Source: Escherichia coli (GTDB lineage Bacteria; Pseudomonadota; Gammaproteobacteria; Enterobacterales; Enterobacteriaceae). From it: 64,000 nt of DNA. The notes beneath the pieces are model-generated. The model made no database searches. It had not been told where the DNA came from and worked only from the letters and a program-made list of their open reading frames with translations. Of the stretch, positions 2,020 through 21,519 are shown in pieces (the stretch's first letter is position 1; every line of letters begins with the position of its first letter). The translations under genes and the position numbers were made by a program. The DNA lies in the NCBI RefSeq assembly GCF_029227855.1, contig NZ_CP074356.1; one strand, given 5' to 3'.

Positions 2020-2417
2020 ACCGACATACACAAATCCGCCAGGTCGTACTGGCACGCCTTCGGGAACAGTGTGGAGACAGCGCCACGTTTTTTGACGGGC
2101 TTCCGGCATTTATTGATGCGCAGGAACTGCCTGCCGTGGCGGTGTGGCTGAGTGATGCTCAGTACACCGGAAAAATGACGGATGAAGATGACTGGCAGGC
2201 TGTTCTGCATATTGCCGTCTTCATCCGGGCACAGGCACCGGATTCAGAGCTGGATATGTGGATGGAGAGCACCATTTTCCCGGCCCTGAATGATGTACCG
2301 GCACTTTCCGGACTCATCGACACCCTGAACCCACTCGGTTTTAACTATCAACGTGATAATGAGATGGCCACCTGGGCGATGGCGGAAATCACGTACCAGA
2401 TCACGTACACGAATTAA
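2016..2417 (+). CDS. Tail terminator protein (lambda gpU-like)
   Basis: Shares recalled lambda U motifs (ATFFDG, PAVAVWL, PDSELDMWMES, PAL) and ends ITYQITY. Confidence 0.85.
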   Translation: MNRHTQIRQVVLARLREQCGDSATFFDGLPAFIDAQELPAVAVWLSDAQYTGKMTDEDDWQAVLHIAVFIRAQAPDSELDMWMESTIFPALNDVPALSGLIDTLNPLGFNYQRDNEMATWAMAEITYQITYTN

Positions 2418-2427
2418 GGAGGTGGTA

Positions 2428-3171
2428 ATGACCACACCAAATCCACTGGCAAAGACGAAAGGTGCGGGGACGACGTTCTGGATGTATACCGGCAACGGCG
2501 ATGCGTTTGCGAACCCTTTGTCGGACACTGACTGGCTGCGTCTTGCGATGGTGAAGGATCTGCAACCTGGCGAAATGACCGCTGATGCAGAAGATGACAC
2601 TTATCTCGATGATGAAGATGCAGACTGGAAAACGACAACCCAGGGGCAGAAATCCGTTGGTGATACTTCGGCGACGCTGGCCTGGCGTCCGGGTGACAGC
2701 GGGCAGAAAAAACTGGTTCAGTTGTTCGACTCCGGTGAAGTCTGCGCGTTTCGTATCAAATATCCCAACGGCACTGTTGATGTTTTCCGTGGCTGGCTGA
2801 GCTCACTGGGTAAAACCATTGCCTCAAAAGACGTGATGACCCGCACTGTGAAAATCAGCGGTGTGGGGCGTCCGTATCTGGCAGAGGAAGGCACTGAAAC
2901 CGTGAGCGTTACCGGGCTGACAGTATCACCGGCGTCTGCCAGTGTAAAAGTGGGAGCAACCACCACGCTGACCTTTACAGTAAAACCTGACGGAGCCAGT
3001 GACAAAGCGATCAGTGTGCATTCGTCAGATCCACAGACTGCCACGGTTACCCTGAACGGACTTGTGGCCACGGTAAAAGGCGTGAAGCAGGGCAGTGTCA
3101 GCATTGTGGGCATGACCGCTGACGGGAATTTTGTGGCTGTGGCTGCGGTGACTGTCAGCGCCGCAGGTTAA
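2428..3171 (+). CDS. Major tail protein (lambda gpV-like) with C-terminal Ig-like (Big_2) domain
   Basis: ATG at 2428 follows an AAGGAGGTGG Shine-Dalgarno; 247 aa; C-terminus is a Thr/Val-rich beta domain typical of V. Confidence 0.9.
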   Translation: MTTPNPLAKTKGAGTTFWMYTGNGDAFANPLSDTDWLRLAMVKDLQPGEMTADAEDDTYLDDEDADWKTTTQGQKSVGDTSATLAWRPGDSGQKKLVQLFDSGEVCAFRIKYPNGTVDVFRGWLSSLGKTIASKDVMTRTVKISGVGRPYLAEEGTETVSVTGLTVSPASASVKVGATTTLTFTVKPDGASDKAISVHSSDPQTATVTLNGLVATVKGVKQGSVSIVGMTADGNFVAVAAVTVSAAG

Positions 3172-3191
3172 CAGGACGATACTCATCATTT

Positions 3192-3219
3192 GCCCCGGTT
3201 ATCCGGGGCTTTTTTGCAG
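3192..3219 (+). terminator. Intrinsic terminator-like hairpin between V and G
   Basis: GCCCCGG-TTAT-CCGGGGC stem followed by TTTTTT. Confidence 0.55.
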
Positions 3220-3228
3220 GTGGAGAAC

Positions 3229-3618
3229 ATGATGTTTCTGAAACAGGGCACGTTTAATTATGAAAAACAGTCCGTGGTGCTCAGTGAGCTGTCCGGGCTG
3301 CAGAGAATTGAATATCTGGCGTTTGTTCAGCAGCGAACGGCAAAGTTTGATGCCGGTGAGGGAGAACTGCCGGAGGCTGAACGACAGATTGCTTTTCTGC
3401 GGATGGGGATGGATATCAATGCCTGGCTGGTTTCCCGCTCACTGTGGAATGCGGATCAGTCTAAGGATGTAGAGACGCTTTGCGCATCCGTTATTACAAC
3501 ATGGTCGTATGATGCCCTGGGTGCGGGGGCGGAGATGGTTCTGTCGCTGAGCGGTATGGGGGCCATTGATAATGCCGGGGATGATGAGCATGAGGCGCTG
3601 ACGCCGGAAAAGTCCTGA
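3229..3618 (+). CDS. Tail assembly chaperone (lambda gpG-like)
   Basis: 129-aa ORF; GGTGGAG Shine-Dalgarno before ATG 3229; sits before the tape measure gene. Confidence 0.85.
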   Translation: MMFLKQGTFNYEKQSVVLSELSGLQRIEYLAFVQQRTAKFDAGEGELPEAERQIAFLRMGMDINAWLVSRSLWNADQSKDVETLCASVITTWSYDALGAGAEMVLSLSGMGAIDNAGDDEHEALTPEKS

Positions 3619-3956
3619 CGCGGGAAATGCAGTTTGTCATGCGGCTTGCCCGGGAGTTCCGACGGGCAGACTGGCGGCGGATGCTGTCGGAAATGTCGGC
3701 CACTGAGCTTGGTGAGTGGGGCGATTATTTCCGGATGCAGAGCTTCAGTGATGTGTGGATGGATGCGCAGTTTGCCTCGCTGAAGGCATTGATCGTGAGA
3801 ATGGTGTCCGGCAGCAGTGATGCTGCGGTGGCTGATTTCAGCCTTTTACCGGAAGAGAACGGGATACCGGAGCGAACGGACGAAGAACTGATGCATCTTG
3901 GGGAAGGTATTTCCGGAGGTGTGCGTTATGGACCAGATAGCCAACCTGGTCATTGA
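3594..3956 (+). CDS. T-frame extension of the G-T fusion chaperone (reached by -1 frameshift from G)
   Basis: The -1 frame is open from 3594 and overlaps the last 8 codons of G; candidate slip site GGAAAAG at 3606-3612. Confidence 0.65.
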   Translation, partial: GADAGKVLTREMQFVMRLAREFRRADWRRMLSEMSATELGEWGDYFRMQSFSDVWMDAQFASLKALIVRMVSGSSDAAVADFSLLPEENGIPERTDEELMHLGEGISGGVRYGPDSQPGH

Positions 3957-6900
3957 TTTGGGGATTGATGCGGCAGAGTTTAAAAATGAAATCCCCCGTA
4001 TCAAAAACCTTCTGAATGGTGCAGCCAGCGATGCAGAACGGTCTTCTGCCCGTATGCAGCGTTTTATGGAGCGTCAGACTCAGGCCGCCCGGCAGACAAC
4101 GCAGGCGGCGTCTTCGGCTGCAACAGCCGCATCCGTCCATGCGCAGACAGTGGAGAAGAACGCACAGGCTCATGAACGCATGGCCCGCGAGGTGGAGAAA
4201 ACCCGCCAGCGCATGGAGGCGCTGAGCCAGAAAATGCGCGAGGAACAGGCGCAGGCCATGGCTCTGGCGGAGGCTCAGGATAAAGCGGCTGCTGCGTTTT
4301 ATCGTCAGATTGACAGTGTGAAACAGGCCAGTGCGGGGCTGCAGGAATTACAGCGTATTCAGCAGCAGATCCGACAGGCCAGAAACAGTGGCGGGATTGG
4401 TCAGCAGGATTATCTGGCGCTGATTTCTGAGGTTACGGCGAAAACCCGTGTTCTTACACAGGCTGAGGAAGAGGCTACCCGACAGAAAGTGGCGTTTATC
4501 CGTCAGCTTAAAGAGCAGGCAACCCGCCAGAATCTTTCTTCTTCTGAGTTGCTTCGTGCTAAGGCTGCCCAGCTGGGGGTAAGCAGTGCTGCAGAAGTGT
4601 ATATCCGCAAAATGGAGCAGGCAGGAAAAGCCACGCATTCGCTGGGTCTGAAAAGTGCAGCGGCCCGTCAGGAGATAGGCGTTCTGATAGGTGAACTGGC
4701 CCGCGGAAATTTAGGTGCGCTGAGGGGATCCGGAATAACGCTGGCTAACCGTGCCGGGTGGATAGACACATTGATGTCACCGAAAGGCATGATGCTTGGC
4801 GGGGTTATTGGCGGTATTGCCGCGGCTGTCTATGGTCTGGGTAAAGCCTGGTATGACGGTCAGAAGGAGGGGGAAGAATTTAACCGCCAGCTGTCGCTGA
4901 CGGGGCATTATGCCGGAGTCACTGCCGGGCAGCTGTGGACGCTCAGTCGTGCTATTTCCGGGAATGGTATCACGCAACATGCTGCAGCCGGTGCGCTGGC
5001 TCAGGTGGTGGGTAGTGGTGCATTTCGTGGAAACGATATCGGTATGGTGGCGAGAGCTGCCGCACAGATGGAGCGATCGGTTGGCCAGTCGATCAGCGAT
5101 ACCATAAATCAGTTTAAGCGGCTGAAGGATGATCCTGTAAATGCCGCGAAGGCTCTGGACAATGAGCTGCATTTTCTTACTGCCACTCAGCTTGAGCAGA
5201 TACGTGTCCTTGGGGATCAGGGACGGTCCAGTGATGCTGCACGGATAGCCATGTCTGCACTGGCAGAGGAAACCGGTCGGCGTACTGCGGATATTGATAA
5301 TAACCTCAATGCGCTTGGTAGTACGCTGAAGTATCTGTCTGATTTGTGGAGTCGTTTCTGGGATGCGGCCATGAATATTGGTCGTGAAGACTCGCTGGAT
5401 GAACAAATTGCCGCTTTACAGGAGAAAGTGTCGCGGGCGAAAAGACTCCCCTGGACGGCATCATCTTCTCAGGTTGAATACGATCAGCAGCGTCTTAACG
5501 ATCTTCAGGAGAAAAAACGCCAGAAGGATTTGCAGGATGCAAAAGAGCAGGCAGAGCGGAATTATCAGGAGCAACAGAAACGCCGTAATGCTGAAAATGC
5601 TGCACTGAACCGGATGAATGAAACTGAAGCAGCACGGCATCAGCGTGAAATTGCGCGTATTAATGCCATGCAGTACGCCGATCAGGCTGTCAGGGATGCG
5701 GCGATACAACGTGAAAATGAACGTTACGAGAAAGCCCTGGCATCCGGTAAGAAAAAAACACGCGAAACCCGTAATGATGAGGCCACCCGGTTATTGCTGC
5801 AGTACAGTCAGCAACAGGCACAGGTGGAAGGGCAGATTGCTGCTGCAAGACAGTCAGCAGGCATTGCCACTGACAGGATGACAGAAGCGCATAAACAGCT
5901 TCTGGCTCTGCAGCAGCGCATCAGCGACCTGGACGGGAAAAAACTGACGGCAGATGAAAAGAGTGTGCTTGCCCGTAAAGATGAACTGATTCAGGCATTG
6001 ACGCTGCTGGATGTAAAACAGCAGGAGCTTCAGAAACAGACGGCACTCAACGAGCTGAAGAAAAAAACAATTCAGCTGACCAGTCAACTGGCTGAAGAAG
6101 AGCGCGCTCAGCGTCAGCAACATGACCTGGATATCGCCACGGTGGGTATGGGTGATCAGCAGCGGCAGCGATATCAGGTACAACTGAGTCTTCGCCAGAA
6201 ATACCAGCAACAGCTGGAGCAGTTGAGGCGGGATAGTGAGCGGAAAGGGACATATAACACGGATGACTACAGAAAGGCCGAGCAGGCGCTGACGGAGAGC
6301 CTGAACCGACAACTGAGTGAGAATCGCCGTTACTGGCAACAGCTTGAAATTGCTCAGGGTGACTGGAAAAACGGAGTCCTGCGTGCACTCCAGAATGTCA
6401 CTGAGAATGCGGATAACACAGCCGGGACAGTGGAACAGTTGTTCACGTCTGCGTTCAGTAGCATGAGTGACTGGCTGGCGACATTCTGTACTACAGGCAA
6501 ACTCAATTTCAAATCCTTCACCTCTTCTGTGCTGTCAGATATGTCCAGAATCATGGCTCAGATAGCTTTAATGAAAGCGGTAAAAGGCATTGCTTCCGCG
6601 CTGCCTTTTGATTTTGTAGCTAATGCTGATGGCGGTGTTTATCAGTCGGCTGATTTGAGTCGCTACAGTGGCACGGTGGTTAACCGTCCGACGTTTTTTG
6701 CTTTTGCAAAAGGCGCGGGTGTGATGGGGGAAGCTGGGCCTGAAGCCATTCTGCCACTGCGTCGTGGTGCTGACGGTAAGCTGGGGGTTGTGGCGGATAT
6801 TGGTGGTTCAGGTATGGCGATGTTTGCCCCGCAGTACAACATCGAGATCAATAACGATGGCACGAACGGGCAGATAGGTCCGGCTGCCCTGAAGGTGGTT

Positions 6901-6984
6901 TATGACCTTGGGAAAAAAGCGGCAGCGGACTTTATGCAACAGCAGGCCCGTGATGGTGGTCGGTTAAGTGGAGCATATCGGTAA
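3928..6984 (+). CDS. Tail tape measure protein (lambda gpH-like)
   Basis: 1018 aa, coiled-coil rich; N-terminus (MDQIANLVIDLGIDAA) and C-terminus (NNDGTNGQIGPAALKVVYD) match recalled lambda H; GGAGGTG Shine-Dalgarno before 3928. Confidence 0.9.
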   Translation: MDQIANLVIDLGIDAAEFKNEIPRIKNLLNGAASDAERSSARMQRFMERQTQAARQTTQAASSAATAASVHAQTVEKNAQAHERMAREVEKTRQRMEALSQKMREEQAQAMALAEAQDKAAAAFYRQIDSVKQASAGLQELQRIQQQIRQARNSGGIGQQDYLALISEVTAKTRVLTQAEEEATRQKVAFIRQLKEQATRQNLSSSELLRAKAAQLGVSSAAEVYIRKMEQAGKATHSLGLKSAAARQEIGVLIGELARGNLGALRGSGITLANRAGWIDTLMSPKGMMLGGVIGGIAAAVYGLGKAWYDGQKEGEEFNRQLSLTGHYAGVTAGQLWTLSRAISGNGITQHAAAGALAQVVGSGAFRGNDIGMVARAAAQMERSVGQSISDTINQFKRLKDDPVNAAKALDNELHFLTATQLEQIRVLGDQGRSSDAARIAMSALAEETGRRTADIDNNLNALGSTLKYLSDLWSRFWDAAMNIGREDSLDEQIAALQEKVSRAKRLPWTASSSQVEYDQQRLNDLQEKKRQKDLQDAKEQAERNYQEQQKRRNAENAALNRMNETEAARHQREIARINAMQYADQAVRDAAIQRENERYEKALASGKKKTRETRNDEATRLLLQYSQQQAQVEGQIAAARQSAGIATDRMTEAHKQLLALQQRISDLDGKKLTADEKSVLARKDELIQALTLLDVKQQELQKQTALNELKKKTIQLTSQLAEEERAQRQQHDLDIATVGMGDQQRQRYQVQLSLRQKYQQQLEQLRRDSERKGTYNTDDYRKAEQALTESLNRQLSENRRYWQQLEIAQGDWKNGVLRALQNVTENADNTAGTVEQLFTSAFSSMSDWLATFCTTGKLNFKSFTSSVLSDMSRIMAQIALMKAVKGIASALPFDFVANADGGVYQSADLSRYSGTVVNRPTFFAFAKGAGVMGEAGPEAILPLRRGADGKLGVVADIGGSGMAMFAPQYNIEINNDGTNGQIGPAALKVVYDLGKKAAADFMQQQARDGGRLSGAYR

Positions 6985-7313
6985 TGGAGACGTTTCACTG
7001 GAAAGTGCGCCCGGATATGAATGTGGTATCAGAGCCGAAAGTGGTGACAGTGAAGCTGGGCGATGGTTATGAACAGCGTCGTGCGGCGGGACTGAATAAC
7101 CAGTTGTCGACTTACAGCGTGACGATACGTGTTCGTAAATGTGAACACCCATCTTTAAAAGCCTTTCTGGAACGGCACGGTGGCGTCCGCGCATTTCAGT
7201 GGACGCCACCTTATGACTGGAAGCCGATCAGGGTGGTTTGTCGTAAATGGTCGGCAAGCGTGGGGGCGCTGTGGGTAACCATAACGGCAGATTTTGAACA
7301 GGTCGTGGCATAG
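6984..7313 (+). CDS. Minor tail protein (lambda gpM-like)
   Basis: 109 aa, same length as lambda M; start overlaps the H stop. Confidence 0.9.
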   Translation: METFHWKVRPDMNVVSEPKVVTVKLGDGYEQRRAAGLNNQLSTYSVTIRVRKCEHPSLKAFLERHGGVRAFQWTPPYDWKPIRVVCRKWSASVGALWVTITADFEQVVA

Positions 7314-7322
7314 GAGGCCCTG

Positions 7323-8021
7323 ATGCAGGATATTCCACAGGAAACACATCATGAGACGACACGCCTTACTCAGTCAGCCCAGGTGGTGCTCTGGGAAATC
7401 GATCTGACAGAGGTCGGTGGTGAACGTTATTTTTTCTGTAATGAGCAGAACGAAAAAGGTGAGCCGGTCACCTGGCAGGGGCGGCAGTATCAGGTATACC
7501 CTATTCAGGGGACGGGATTTGAACTGAACGGTAAGGGTAGTGCTGCCCGTCCGACACTGACGGTCTCTAACCTGCACGGCATGGTCACCGGGATGGTGGA
7601 AGACCTGCAGAGTCTGGTCGGCGGAACGGTGGTCAGGCGTAAGGTTTACGCCCGTTTTCTGGATGCGGTGAACTTCGTCAACGGAAACAGCGACGCCGAT
7701 CCGGAGCAGGAGGTGATCAGCCGCTGGCGCATCGAGCAGTGCAGCGAACTGAGTGCGGTCAGTGCCTCCTTTGTGCTCTCCACACCGACGGAAACGGATG
7801 GTGCTGTTTTTCCGGGGCGCATCATGCTGGCCAACACCTGCACCTGGACCTATCGCGGTGATGAGTGCGGTTATCATGGTCCGGCTGTCGCGGATGAATA
7901 TGACCAGCCGACGTCCGATATCACGAAGGATAAATGCAGCAAATGCCTGAGCGGCTGTAAGTTTCGCAATAACGTCGGCAACTTTGGCGGCTTCCTTTCC
8001 ATTAACAAACTTTCGCAGTAA
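7323..8021 (+). CDS. Minor tail protein (lambda gpL-like)
   Basis: 232 aa, same length as lambda L; Cys-rich C-terminus. Confidence 0.9.
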   Translation: MQDIPQETHHETTRLTQSAQVVLWEIDLTEVGGERYFFCNEQNEKGEPVTWQGRQYQVYPIQGTGFELNGKGSAARPTLTVSNLHGMVTGMVEDLQSLVGGTVVRRKVYARFLDAVNFVNGNSDADPEQEVISRWRIEQCSELSAVSASFVLSTPTETDGAVFPGRIMLANTCTWTYRGDECGYHGPAVADEYDQPTSDITKDKCSKCLSGCKFRNNVGNFGGFLSINKLSQ

Positions 8022-12915: not shown

Positions 12916-13515
12916 ATGCGTAAAGTTTGTGCCGCCATTTTTTCCGCAGCCATTTGTCTGGCCGTATCCGGTGCGCCTGCATGGGCATCTGAACATCAGT
13001 CCACGCTGAGCGCGGGGTATCTTCATGCCTCGACGAACGTTCCCGGCAGCGATGATCTGAACGGGATTAACGTGAAATACCGTTATGAGTTTACGGACAC
13101 ACTGGGGATGGTGACGTCATTCAGCTATGCAGGAGACAAGAATCGCCAGCTTACCCGTTACAGCGATACCCGCTGGCATGAAGATTCCGTGCGTAACCGC
13201 TGGTTCAGCGTGATGGTGGGGCCGTCTGTGCGCGTGAATGAATGGTTCAGCGCGTATGCGATGGCGGGTATGGCTTACAGCCGTGTTTCGACTTTCTCCG
13301 GAGATTATATCCGCGTAACTGACAACAAGGGGAAAACGCACGATGTGCTGACCGGAAGTGATGACGGTCGCCACAGCGACACGTCTCTGGCATGGGGGGC
13401 TGGCGTGCAGTTTAACCCGACCGAATCCGTGGCCATTGATATTGCTTATGAAGGTTCCGGCAGTGGCGACTGGCGCACTGACGGTTTCATCGTTGGTGTC
13501 GGTTATAAATTCTGA
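12916..13515 (+). CDS. lom: Lom-like outer membrane beta-barrel protein (Ail/PagC/OmpX family)
   Basis: 199 aa with signal peptide, alternating aromatic beta strands and terminal Phe; sits after J as in lambda. Confidence 0.9.
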
Positions 13516-17995: not shown

Positions 17996-18005
17996 AAAAA
18001 GGTGA

Positions 18006-18125
18006 GCTGTATATGCAACGGAGGAAGAAACCTCGTTGCGGGAAGCCTTGAAGAAGTATCGGGTGTTGCTGAACCGTGTTGATACGTCAACTGCACAGGA
18101 TATTGAATGGCCAGCACTGCCGTAG
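18006..18125 (+). pseudogene. tfa: Tail fibre assembly (Tfa) gene remnant: only the conserved C-terminal ~39 codons
   Basis: Translation [29 protein letters not shown] matches the conserved Tfa C-terminus; the frame closes at a stop just upstream at 18003-18005. Confidence 0.55.
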
Positions 18126-18222
18126 GGTAAAACATATAAATTCTATAATTAGATGTATCTTTCCATTTACGGCAAGGAAGGGGGCTTGGAAGACGTAAGG
18201 CATCTCACACCGAGATTATTTT

Positions 18223-18813
18223 TTATATGTCAGGTGTCTGAAGTTTTGCTTTGGCTCTTAAAATGGTTTGCCGCGAGGTTTTGAATTCCCGGGCAATGGC
18301 ACTTATACTTACACCTGACTTAATCCGTTCGAATACCACCTGTTTCTGTTCTTCATTTAACACAGGTGGTCGACCAAAACGTTTCCCTGCGCCCCGGGCT
18401 CTTACTATCCCGGAATGAGTGCGTTCAAGTAAAAGGTCTCGTTCAAATTCAGCGACTGCTGAAATTACTTGCATCATCATTTTTCCTGTTGGACTGGTCA
18501 GGTCAATGCCCCCCAATGCTAAGCAATGCACTCTGATACCTGTTTCGGTCAGTTGTTCCACTGTTTTCCTGATATCCATTGCATTACAACCAAGGCGATC
18601 CAGTTTTGTCACAATCAATTGATCACCACATTTCAGGCGAGCAAGCAACCGGTTAAAACCAGGACGCTCACTGGTTGCTGCTGAGCCGCTAATGTGTTCT
18701 TCGATTATTTGCTGAGGTTTGATTTTAAAACCTGCACTTTCGATTTCCCGGCGTTGATTTTCGGTGGTCTGATCCAGCGTTGATATCCGACAGTAAGCAA
18801 AAATTCGAGACAT
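18223..18813 (-). CDS. pinQ: Serine recombinase / DNA invertase (PinQ/PinR-like)
   Basis: 196 aa; N-terminal catalytic region (YCRISTLDQ) and C-terminal helix-turn-helix; convergent with the tfa remnant, next to ydfK. Confidence 0.85.
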
Positions 18814-19129
18814 AGTGAGACTCTATACGAAATTGGTGTTCATATCATAATGCATCTCAGAAAATAATTTTGATTATTTTTTTGCATGTTTGTATGTACA
18901 CGTTCGAAAATAAACGAATGCGTATGCAACCCCGTAATTTTGGTGAGACCCAAAATCGATTTTGTGAAAAATGGCTTTAACTCGGTTTGTTTTTCGAGTT
19001 CCGGGCGGACTCAAGGAAGAAGAATAGTGTTGCGTGTTATTTTAACCAGATTTCAAGTTGTTTGGTCGTGGAAAAGTGGAGCAAAATGTTGTTAAAGTGG
19101 AAAAATGATAAAAAAGTAAGTTTATTATA

Positions 19130-19363
19130 TTACATTTTACCATTTAAATTTTGGTTGTCTTTAAGAACTGATATCGCTGTTTGTAATAATTCTTTGTTAT
19201 CCAGCCATGATTTGTTCTTTATGTTTCCTTCAATGTAATCAAGCAATGTTCTGGTATTGATAGGTCTTCCCTGTTTTGCTACTTCCACTACAGCATCCCC
19301 TAGGATAATTCTGACTTCAGGAAGCTGCGCAGGGAACCACTTTAGGGTGTCTTTTGATTTCAT
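19130..19363 (-). CDS. ydfK: Small prophage protein YdfK/YnaE-like
   Basis: 77 aa from the internal Met (MKSKDTLKWF...), matching the recalled YdfK length and its position next to pin. Confidence 0.55.
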   Translation of the reverse strand: MKSKDTLKWFPAQLPEVRIILGDAVVEVAKQGRPINTRTLLDYIEGNIKNKSWLDNKELLQTAISVLKDNQNLNGKM

Positions 19364-20147
19364 GAATATATTCCTTAAAATATTATTGATTTTCATTGCG
19401 ATATTGTATGTCTGATTCAGGATATGTTGACTTATACATCGGTTTTGTCTGGGTTATTGGATATGCCAATCCCTAATTTTATTAGAGCATGACTAAAAAT
19501 GCTGAATATGATAAGGAGCGAAGTGATTATCAGTATGCTGTTCATATAGCCTCGAATTAGTAATGTGTTATATATGATATAGTTGACAATTTTTATCCTG
19601 GGTGTTCTTAAAGTTCGTAGATAAACATTGTCGTTTCAGGTATACAGGAATGCTAACAGATGGCGGCAAAAATCAGGCGGTTTATGGCGCAAGCTGAAGT
19701 GGCAACTGCAAACTATCTTATGCAGAGACTCTACACGGATTGGGTTTAAAAGTATACATAGATAACAGTTTTTATCTGAAGAAGAAAAATATCAAGGTGA
19801 TATAGCCTATATGCCTTTGATGCGGAGGAATGAATGTGATGGGAGTGATGTATCTGAATAGTTGAAAAACCGCAGACACGCCTTATGCAAGAACGTGCTG
19901 CGGTTGGCTGGTAAATTTTTCGATAGTGCGAGTATTGAATGATTTCCAGCCGTTATTGATTTTACGCGTAACTCCATGAAAAAACTACTTATCTGTTGAG
20001 GAGTTTTTTGGGGCATATATGGGACAGAAATAGGCCCCAGATAGACACTGAGATCGAACTTAGGATGCTTTTTAAAAAATGCAACTATCTGAAAAAACCT
20101 AGAAAACGCCAAGGAAACCACAGGATGGGAAAAAACACCTGTGAATT

Positions 20148-21431
20148 ATGGATTTCCAGTTATATTCGCTCGGCGCAGCGTTAGTGTTTCATGAAATATT
20201 TTTTCCTGAATCATCAACGGCAATGGCGTTAATTCTGGCAATGGGAACCTACGGTGCAGGTTATGTGGCGCGTATTGTCGGAGCATTTATTTTCGGCAAA
20301 ATGGGCGACAGAATCGGGCGTAAAAAAGTGCTCTTTATTACCATCACCATGATGGGGATCTGTACCACCTTAATTGGTGTGCTGCCGACCTATGCACAAA
20401 TTGGTGTGTTTGCGCCAATTTTGCTGGTGACGCTGCGTATTATTCAGGGGCTGGGGGCAGGCGCGGAAATTTCCGGTGCCGGCACGATGCTGGCGGAATA
20501 TGCACCAAAAGGTAAGCGCGGAATTATCTCCTCATTTGTTGCTATGGGGACTAACTGCGGAACCTTGAGCGCAACGGCAATCTGGGCCTTTATGTTCTTC
20601 ATTCTCAGTAAAGAGGAACTGCTGGCGTGGGGATGGCGTATACCGTTCCTGGCGAGCGTTGTCGTGATGGTCTTTGCTATCTGGTTGCGTATGAATCTGA
20701 AAGAAAGCCCGGTCTTTGAGAAGGTTAACGACAGCAACCAACCGACAGCAAAACCTGCACCTGCTGGTAGCATGTTCCAGAGCAAATCCTTCTGGCTGGC
20801 AACAGGGCTGCGTTTTGGTCAGGCTGGTAACTCCGGTTTAATTCAGACTTTCCTTGCAGGCTATTTAGTGCAGACGTTATTGTTTAACAAAGCAATTCCA
20901 ACAGATGCATTGATGATCAGTTCGATTCTCGGCTTTATGACCATTCCGTTCCTTGGTTGGTTATCCGATAAAATTGGTCGCCGGATCCCGTATATTATTA
21001 TGAATACCTCTGCGATTGTGCTGGCGTGGCCAATGCTTTCTATCATCGTAGATAAAAGCTATGCCCCGAGCACCATTATGGTTGCACTGATTGTGATTCA
21101 TAACTGTGCGGTGCTGGGATTATTTGCTCTGGAAAACATTACCATGGCAGAAATGTTCGGCTGTAAAAACCGCTTTACCCGGATGGCTATTTCTAAAGAA
21201 ATTGGTGGTCTTATCGCTTCCGGTTTTGGTCCTATCCTGGCGGGTATTTTCTGCACCATGACGGAATCCTGGTATCCGATCGCCATTATGATCATGGCAT
21301 ATTCAGTGATTGGTTTAATCTCTGCGCTGAAAATGCCAGAAGTGAAAGACCGTGATTTAAGTGCGCTGGAAGACGCTGCGGAAGATCAACCGCGTGTTGT
21401 CAGAGCTGCGCAACCTTCCAGAAGTCTTTAA
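20148..21431 (+). CDS. ydfJ: MFS metabolite:H+ symporter YdfJ, N-terminally truncated at the prophage junction
   Basis: Frame opens right after a TGA at 20142-20144 and starts within the first transmembrane region, so about 20-30 N-terminal residues are missing. Confidence 0.8.
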   Translation: MDFQLYSLGAALVFHEIFFPESSTAMALILAMGTYGAGYVARIVGAFIFGKMGDRIGRKKVLFITITMMGICTTLIGVLPTYAQIGVFAPILLVTLRIIQGLGAGAEISGAGTMLAEYAPKGKRGIISSFVAMGTNCGTLSATAIWAFMFFILSKEELLAWGWRIPFLASVVVMVFAIWLRMNLKESPVFEKVNDSNQPTAKPAPAGSMFQSKSFWLATGLRFGQAGNSGLIQTFLAGYLVQTLLFNKAIPTDALMISSILGFMTIPFLGWLSDKIGRRIPYIIMNTSAIVLAWPMLSIIVDKSYAPSTIMVALIVIHNCAVLGLFALENITMAEMFGCKNRFTRMAISKEIGGLIASGFGPILAGIFCTMTESWYPIAIMIMAYSVIGLISALKMPEVKDRDLSALEDAAEDQPRVVRAAQPSRSL

Positions 21432-21519
21432 ATCCTCAATCCCTTCTCTTACCGGAGAGGGGATTTTTATTCATATAACAAAACATGTAGCTTGCCATAT
21501 TTATGTTTAAGGAATTGTT

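Follow-up and report, generated by a model that had tools for sequence, protein, structure and literature searches.

The locus studied here is a gap of 751 bp in the window, that is, the whole analyzed stretch of 64,000 nucleotides from Escherichia coli contig NZ_CP074356.1, whose positions are used throughout. The gap is bounded on one side by ydfK (19130-19363, minus strand) and on the other by a truncated ydfJ (20148-21431, plus strand) lacking its N-terminus. The RefSeq annotations of E. coli CFSAN061763 and K-12 MG1655 describe the locus as an end of the Qin prophage with ydfK, ynfT, and truncated ydfJ, and both place ynfT, a gene of the YnaM/YnfT family, inside the gap. A preliminary description had recognized an AT-rich stretch of about 0.75 kb at a prophage-host junction between the two flanking genes, and we confirmed this: the GC content of the gap is 37.8% (284/751), whereas the window as a whole has 49% and the interior of ydfJ about 50%; the AT-richness of the gap is therefore real. 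A megablast search of complete E. coli genomes found a copy with 100% identity in strain CFSAN061763, and 2,022 genomes covered at least 80% of the gap. A lambdoid prophage of the Qin type has been inserted in ydfJ, and the gap forms its right end; the locus is ordinary and for the most part annotated already. Its features are summarized in Table 1.

Table 1. Features of the gap between ydfK and truncated ydfJ, and IS009 matches in related phage loci
Feature	Position	Strand	Details
Predicted Fur-box cluster	~19370-19396	minus	AT-rich, AATGAAAATCAATAATATTTT; follows the promoter candidate at 19403-19430
Sigma-70-like promoter candidate just upstream of ydfK	19403-19430	minus	TCAACA, 16-nt spacer, TACAAT
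ynfT (37 aa, small hydrophobic protein, YnaM/YnfT family)	19432-19545	minus	RefSeq; preceded by GAGG Shine-Dalgarno
ynfT 5' leader	19546-19744	minus	RNA 3' ends at ~19691, 19679, and 19644
Small hairpin, then C-rich tract	19720-19736	minus	In ynfT leader
Sigma-70-like promoter candidate for ynfT leader	19751-19780	minus	TTCAGA, 18-nt spacer, TATACT
GGAGGA motif and 11-codon ORF (MNVMGVMYLNS*)	19824-19865	plus	Motif 19824-19829, ORF 19830-19865; judged not to be a gene
Intrinsic terminator	19861-19905	minus	Hairpin 19868-19905, then UUUUU (19869-19865)
Conserved dinI 3'UTR block	19906-19965	minus	Kept after dinI in IMG/VR prophage contigs and phage 2H10
Stem-loop SL1	19906-19951	minus	GGCUGGAAAU...AUUUACCAGCC; directly abuts terminator
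Degenerate last ~7 codons of dinI-like gene, with spacer	19966-19995	minus	Alignment with phage 2H10
Phage-specific att arm, where lambda has its P arm	19990-20141	.	Identity to attP regions of intact phages
Candidate protein-binding repeat	20006-20026		TTTTGGGGCATATATGGGACA; recurs in opposite arm of Tritos attP
Candidate protein-binding repeat	20082-20096		CAACTATCTGAAAAA; recurs in opposite arm of Tritos attP
att core of attR (P-O-B')	20142-20156	.	TGAATTATGGATTTC; four-way alignment
IS009 matches (Rfam)	L005 1071-1269; L018 1475-1673; L025 2811-3009		Related phage loci
IS009 matches (Rfam)	L026 10214-10412; L019 4461-4659		Related phage loci

The preliminary description had taken the stretch to be noncoding, with no credible open reading frame (ORF). 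This had to be corrected because the stretch contains ynfT, the product of which scored 63.9 bits on the NCBIfam model NF041477 (cutoff, 35) and 96.2 bits on the Pfam model PF23676 (cutoff, 27). VanOrsdel et al. (2018; PMC6001520) detected YnaM of the Rac prophage and YnfQ of the Qin prophage by immunoblotting of chromosomal SPA-tag fusions; YnfQ is the former name of the Qin protein (K-12 positions 1632890-1633003), and its sequence is identical to that of YnaM and of the ORF in the window. Both proteins were also positive in a tetracycline ribosome-profiling screen (PMC6001520), and Weaver et al. (bioRxiv 10.1101/511675) reported that YnaM was more abundant than most of the small proteins newly detected. 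These data show that the small protein is made. The other ORFs of the gap, of 104, 62, and 45 amino acids, gave zero matches in the family-model search; furthermore, the region holds no intact ORF for a DinI-like protein, and no ORF in it fits a DinI family.

RNA ends have been recorded in the leader of ynfT. The K-12 Term-seq data list 3' ends of the class "orphan" at 1632744(+) and 1632791(+) in Qin and at 1434552(-) and 1434540(-) in Rac (PMC7815308), and these map to the three leader positions given in Table 1. The scores of the Rac ends are 45,000 to 76,000, whereas those of K-12 Qin are about 40 times lower (PMC7815308). We observed that the Qin leader of K-12 differs from that of Rac by a few single-nucleotide polymorphisms and that the window has the Rac-type sequence; the abundant orphan 3' end lies about 50 to 65 nt into the ynaM/ynfT leader. 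These ends may be premature or processed, arising by attenuation, Rho, or processing, and the abundant leader RNA could result from attenuation or represent a small RNA. No entry was retrieved from the Rho-region table at the leader-end coordinates, the predicted fold of the leader was no better than those of shuffled sequences (z = -0.28), and the cspA thermoregulator model of Rfam had no match in 18800-20600 at an E value of 10 or below.

Two sigma-70-like promoter candidates accompany these genes. The one preceding the ynfT leader matches the consensus at 9 of 12 positions, the copies in K-12 Qin, Rac, and phage 2H10 have the same two hexamers, and the leader RNA 3' ends lie downstream of it on the same strand. 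The other lies just upstream of ydfK. In the consensus scan, promoter calls in the AT-rich gap occurred at chance frequency (5 found, 5.0 expected), and we infer that these two candidates may be used. Behind the second candidate lies the predicted Fur-box cluster: an information-theory scan has reported a 17.1-bit Fur cluster centered at +8 of the old ydfK start, which is identical in ynaE (PMC2189734).

At the opposite edge of the gap, we located the attachment site by alignment of attB, attP, attL, and attR. The core common to all four is TGAATT(T)ATG(G/C)ATTTC, which can also be written as TGAATTATG(G/C)ATTTC, and homology switches there. The intact ydfJ of strain JEB8 provides attB (...gcgct TGAATTTATGGATTTC cagtt...), and phage Tritos provides attP (...cacctg TGAATTATGCATTTC aagag...). 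Strain CFSAN061763 has attL, consisting of the core followed by the phage arm (...gcgct TGAATTTATGGATTTC aagag...), and the window has attR, in which the phage arm, the core, and host DNA follow one another (...cacctg TGAATTATGGATTTC cagtt...). In agreement with this, megablast homology to uninterrupted ydfJ genes, such as that of JEB8, begins at 20142, and the annotated start codon of truncated ydfJ (20148) falls within the core. The preliminary description had anticipated an att core within the stretch and had proposed alignment with an uninterrupted ydfJ as a means of locating it; the core is indeed present, at the right edge, and since the four-way alignment places it there, the junction is fully explained.

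The att arm adjoining the core has counterparts in the attP regions of four intact phages (Tritos, HannyBb, PhiR42_1, and mEp460_ev081), with identities of 98 to 99.7%. In these four phages, the similarity covers 19760-20147 at 98 to 99.7% identity (99 to 99.7% in Tritos and HannyBb), after which phage DNA follows; the arm is absent from the Rac copy. Judged by sequence, the two repeats in the arm may be protein-binding sites of the arm-type Int or IHF kind. The prophage to which positions 1-20156 of the window belong corresponds to CFSAN061763 2389340-2435778, has a length of about 46 kb, and carries intact int, xis, exo, dicB, and dicC genes. Where examined, it is a close match to the isolated phages Tritos and HannyBb, and it may be inducible. 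Besides, at attL of CFSAN061763 (locus L094, ~5266-5376), phage DNA is joined to codons 1 to 31 of ydfJ, yielding MTIEKHERSTKDLVKAAVSGWLGTALEFMDFKSHAC, which is identical to YnfP, a small protein of K-12 validated by SPA tagging (PMC6001520). This product is a chimeric host-phage small protein made by prophage integration.

Between the att arm and the ynfT leader lies a stem-loop, which the preliminary description had noted at 19867-19904. It exists with a shift of 1 nt and consists of a 12-bp outer stem with one bulge and a 3-bp inner stem, but it acts on the minus strand and not in the plus-strand orientation assumed there. As minus-strand RNA, it is predicted to fold with -20.7 kcal/mol (z = -3.1), and UUUUUC directly follows the stem on this strand only, the plus strand having an A-run at 19865-19869. 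In K-12, Term-seq (Adams et al. 2021; PMC7815308, supplementary file 1) lists curated 3' ends at 1632571(+), twice, and at 1632574(+), once; they cover all three growth conditions and belong to the class "orphan," and the listed sequence stops on the U-run (...GTGTGTCTGCGGTTTTTC). The plus strand of K-12 corresponds to the minus strand of the window, so that these ends correspond to positions 19864 and 19861. The measurements concern the K-12 copy, which belongs to another strain; it shares 98% identity with the window and differs in the stem by two wobble-compatible changes. The scores of these ends are low (2,150 to 7,362). From the junction to the hairpin, the Term-seq data list no further 3' end (PMC7815308). 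Because the K-12 ends fall on the U-run and on the ynfT strand, the hairpin is a working intrinsic terminator for minus-strand transcription from the junction side, as its in vivo 3' ends in the 98%-identical K-12 copy demonstrate. The function on this strand accords with the adjacent U-run and with the position of the hairpin after dinI or int, described below. The variants of the hairpin show only G-C to G-U, bulge, or loop changes, so that there is no real covariation evidence; the hairpin and leader variants, at 92 to 100% identity, are too alike to inform a covariation analysis. With almost no compensatory variation, the structural support is thus thermodynamic and experimental rather than evolutionary.

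The preliminary description had read the same stem-loop on the plus strand and had suggested that the stretch could encode a small RNA or a leader peptide; in its plus-strand form, this would be a CssrB-type small RNA ending at the stem-loop, a leader peptide from the tiny ORF behind the GGAGGA motif, or both. A covariance-model scan of 18800-20600 against Rfam at permissive thresholds brought no family to its threshold, and the only match was a subthreshold one to CssrB, the chromosome-encoded Shigella sRNA B (RF02799; 19765-19902, plus strand, E = 0.002), which scored 28.7 bits (gathering score, 76). Only the hairpin aligns, and model positions 1-145, the body of the RNA, are absent; identification as CssrB was rejected. 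The window and CssrB do share the terminal hairpin together with the sequence next to it, GGTTGG.TG.TA.TTTTT, but CssrB lies opposite the strand that terminates in the window. A true CssrB with hairpin and 3' flank in this orientation does occur in a Shigella-like ipaH island from IMG/VR (locus L045, 3028-3207, minus strand), where a full match of 230 bits lies between SAM-methyltransferase and ipaH-like genes and a sok (CssrC) match is found further along (12930-13105). The 3' hairpin of that CssrB belongs to the same hairpin family but has the opposite orientation, and the body of the RNA is different.

The remaining evidence also speaks against a plus-strand product. In plus-strand RNA, the stem is followed by GGCUGGUAAAUUUUU without an adjacent U-run, and the fold of the entire 81-nt segment reaches a z value of only -1.9. 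The T-run that the preliminary description saw shortly after the stem lies at 19917-19921, 12 nt away, and is part of a second, minus-strand hairpin. None of the Term-seq 3' ends retrieved for the interval is on the plus strand (PMC7815308), and a plus-strand terminator was therefore rejected. No promoter-like site was seen upstream on that strand. As for the tiny ORF, both it and its GGAGGA motif are present, but several points argue against coding: the Shine-Dalgarno spacing is 0 nt, the strand has no listed 3' end, and phage 2H10 has GGAAGA with three nonsynonymous changes against one synonymous change, so that the ORF appears to drift freely with no sign of purifying selection. Consequently, although RNA does arise from this region, as attested by the Term-seq 3' ends of the K-12 copy, both those in the ynfT leader and those of the hairpin, we consider a plus-strand CssrB-type small RNA or a GGAGGA leader peptide very improbable.

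The origin of the terminator became apparent from a pattern scan of IMG/VR, which gave 61 contexts of this hairpin family. In about 30 of them, a match to dinI-like coding sequence ends 70 nt upstream of the hairpin on the terminator strand, with a conserved 3'UTR block of 60 nt in between; in other contexts, different accessory genes end just upstream of the hairpin, and a convergent tail-fiber assembly gene follows. The window retains the 60-nt block and, upstream of it, degenerate codons: GATAAGTAGTTTTTTCATGGAGTTACGCG aligns to GACGAGTGGTTTGTTCACTAATTAACACG of phage 2H10, GAT AAG TAG TTT TTT CAT in the window corresponding to GAC GAG TGG TTT GTT CAC TAA (...DEWFVH*) in the phage. Thus, the segment from 19906 to about 19995 represents the scar of a lost dinI-like gene. 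Within the block, SL1 and the terminator together fold with -34.3 kcal/mol (z = -6.07), and 0 of 200 shuffled sequences folded as well.

The stability of this two-hairpin structure raises the question of whether SL1 and the terminator could constitute an independent minus-strand small RNA of about 90 to 100 nt with TAAAAT (19959-19964) as its -10 element. The block indeed opens with this good hexamer, the 3' end at the K-12 Qin terminator is an orphan end recorded in all three conditions, and the Rac hairpin, which has no SL1 block, has no such end listed (PMC7815308). On the other hand, the Qin and dinI contexts offer neither an acceptable -35 element nor a TG extension upstream, and a simple consensus scan found no sigma-70-like promoter in 19850-21500. 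The Term-seq scores are also low. Moreover, the block is a dinI 3'UTR wherever the context can be interpreted, and the copies adjacent to insertion sequences are insertions, which weakens the idea of a small RNA starting at TAAAAT. We therefore regard an independent small RNA as unlikely and the dinI 3'UTR as the better description of the block; the RNA ending at the K-12 Qin hairpin could come from read-in transcription antisense to ydfJ or from the arm, or from a weak TAAAAT promoter.

Two related loci carry an insertion sequence. At L045 (~1880-1975) and L057, the TAAAAT with which the dinI 3'UTR block begins is immediately preceded by an inserted element of the IS3 family, which creates a hybrid promoter-like site (TTGAAT, 18-nt spacer, TAAAAT) that faces SL1 and the terminator. 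Besides, Rfam IS009 matches of 220 to 230 bits lie near the hairpin in the related phage loci listed in Table 1. In 2H10 (L005), the match falls within the annotated tail-fiber assembly gene, the counterpart of which in the window is a partial tfa at ~18000-18200.

The hairpin has a further neighbor before integration. In Tritos and HannyBb, int lies on the terminator strand with its stop codon 293 nt upstream of the hairpin and attP in between, whereas in CFSAN061763 int and xis adjoin rspB at attL, at a distance of about 46 kb. Rac shows the order intR, att, TTTTGCCCC repeats, and then the same hairpin; its integrase and arm differ from those of the Qin type, intR has the same orientation relative to the hairpin as int in Tritos and HannyBb, and the homology between Rac and the window begins at the hairpin. 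From the hairpin to ynfT, the window and the Rac ynaM copy differ at 4 positions in 400 nt. The hairpin is the boundary at which int-att cassettes of the Qin and Rac types join the ynfT-ydfK module, which makes it a handy landmark for mosaic joints in prophages.

Such an arrangement resembles that of the sib retroregulator of lambda, and the hairpin could by analogy act in the same manner, separated from int in the prophage: anti-terminated read-through from an early operon would form an RNase III site, and int mRNA would be degraded from its 3' end. Reading of int across attP into the hairpin, the distance from the int stop (293 nt in Tritos and about 230 nt in lambda), the similar geometry (stems of 11 to 12 bp and loops of 13 nt), and the same layout in Rac despite a different int are consistent with this view. 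However, in fold predictions the lambda tI stem, used as a control, gains six pairs through the U-tract in read-through RNA, whereas the equivalent fold of the window gains none, and the lambda att/sib region has no sequence similarity to the window beyond chance matches of 8 to 9 nt. The element is therefore tI-like in position and not a member of the sib family. Furthermore, the gene preceding the hairpin in most other phages is not int but dinI or another accessory gene, and the position behind int in the Qin and Rac types looks secondary. A sib-type function of the hairpin is, in our opinion, improbable.

Taken together, the gap is very probably the attR-side end of a Qin/Tritos-type prophage with a minus-strand anatomy of att site, dinI scar, terminator, leader, ynfT, and a promoter-like site with predicted Fur boxes. 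Proceeding inwards from the host junction, the 15-bp core and a phage arm of about 150 bp are followed by the remains of a lost dinI-like accessory gene, namely, its last codons and its structured 3'UTR with SL1. The terminator of that gene (19868-19905 with U5) stops minus-strand transcription from the junction side. A promoter-like site and a leader of about 200 nt with putative premature transcript ends come next, leading to ynfT with its validated 37-amino-acid product, and ydfK, a cold-shock gene, is preceded by a second promoter-like site with predicted Fur boxes. Once the phage is excised and circular, int and xis lie directly upstream across attP, and the hairpin is the first terminator behind int, where lambda has tI; in the lysogen, it would shield the ynfT-ydfK module from read-in transcription. 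We infer that the hairpin may have such an insulating or int-terminating role.

With this interpretation, att site, gene scar, terminator, and small-protein gene together fully account for an AT-rich junction that had seemed empty. Besides, two orphan 3' ends of the K-12 Term-seq data obtain a structural explanation, one at the dinI-derived terminator of the Qin end and the other in the ynfT/ynaM leader. The importance beyond a tidy annotation is little. A broader role, in which the SL1-terminator RNA, the ynfT/ynaM leader RNA, or both are regulatory in lambdoid prophages and the hairpin doubles as a tI/sib-like control of int, is unlikely; such regulation might take the form of a 3'UTR-derived or orphan small RNA or of a premature-termination switch on the cold-shock ynfT-ydfK module.

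One of the closest known systems is the ydfJ'-ynfT-ydfK end of K-12 Qin (b1543, b4748, and b1544), with 98% identity and the same genes and junction. The K-12 annotation sets the Qin boundary 9 bp inside the start of ydfJ, which is within the att core found in the window, and the K-12 hairpin has two G-U wobble changes. The two prophages nevertheless differ in extent, as K-12 Qin is a remnant of about 20 kb, whereas that of CFSAN061763 is a full-length Tritos-like element of about 46 kb with intact int and xis. The ynaM-ynaE end of Rac shares the small protein and the leader 3' ends with the Qin end, but it has another att arm, with the TTTTGCCCC repeats, is integrated at ttcA, and has no SL1/dinI block. 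In phage 2H10, gp27 exemplifies a dinI-like 3' end whose last codons, 60-nt 3'UTR block, and hairpin are homologous to those of the window; the window, in contrast, has no dinI gene, and the joint with an int-attP module lies about 90 nt before the hairpin. Finally, in lambda the order is int, attP, and tI/sib, and the hairpin described here is likewise the first terminator downstream of int on the int strand. As in lambda, it adjoins an att arm, and in the prophage it has been moved to the end opposite int.
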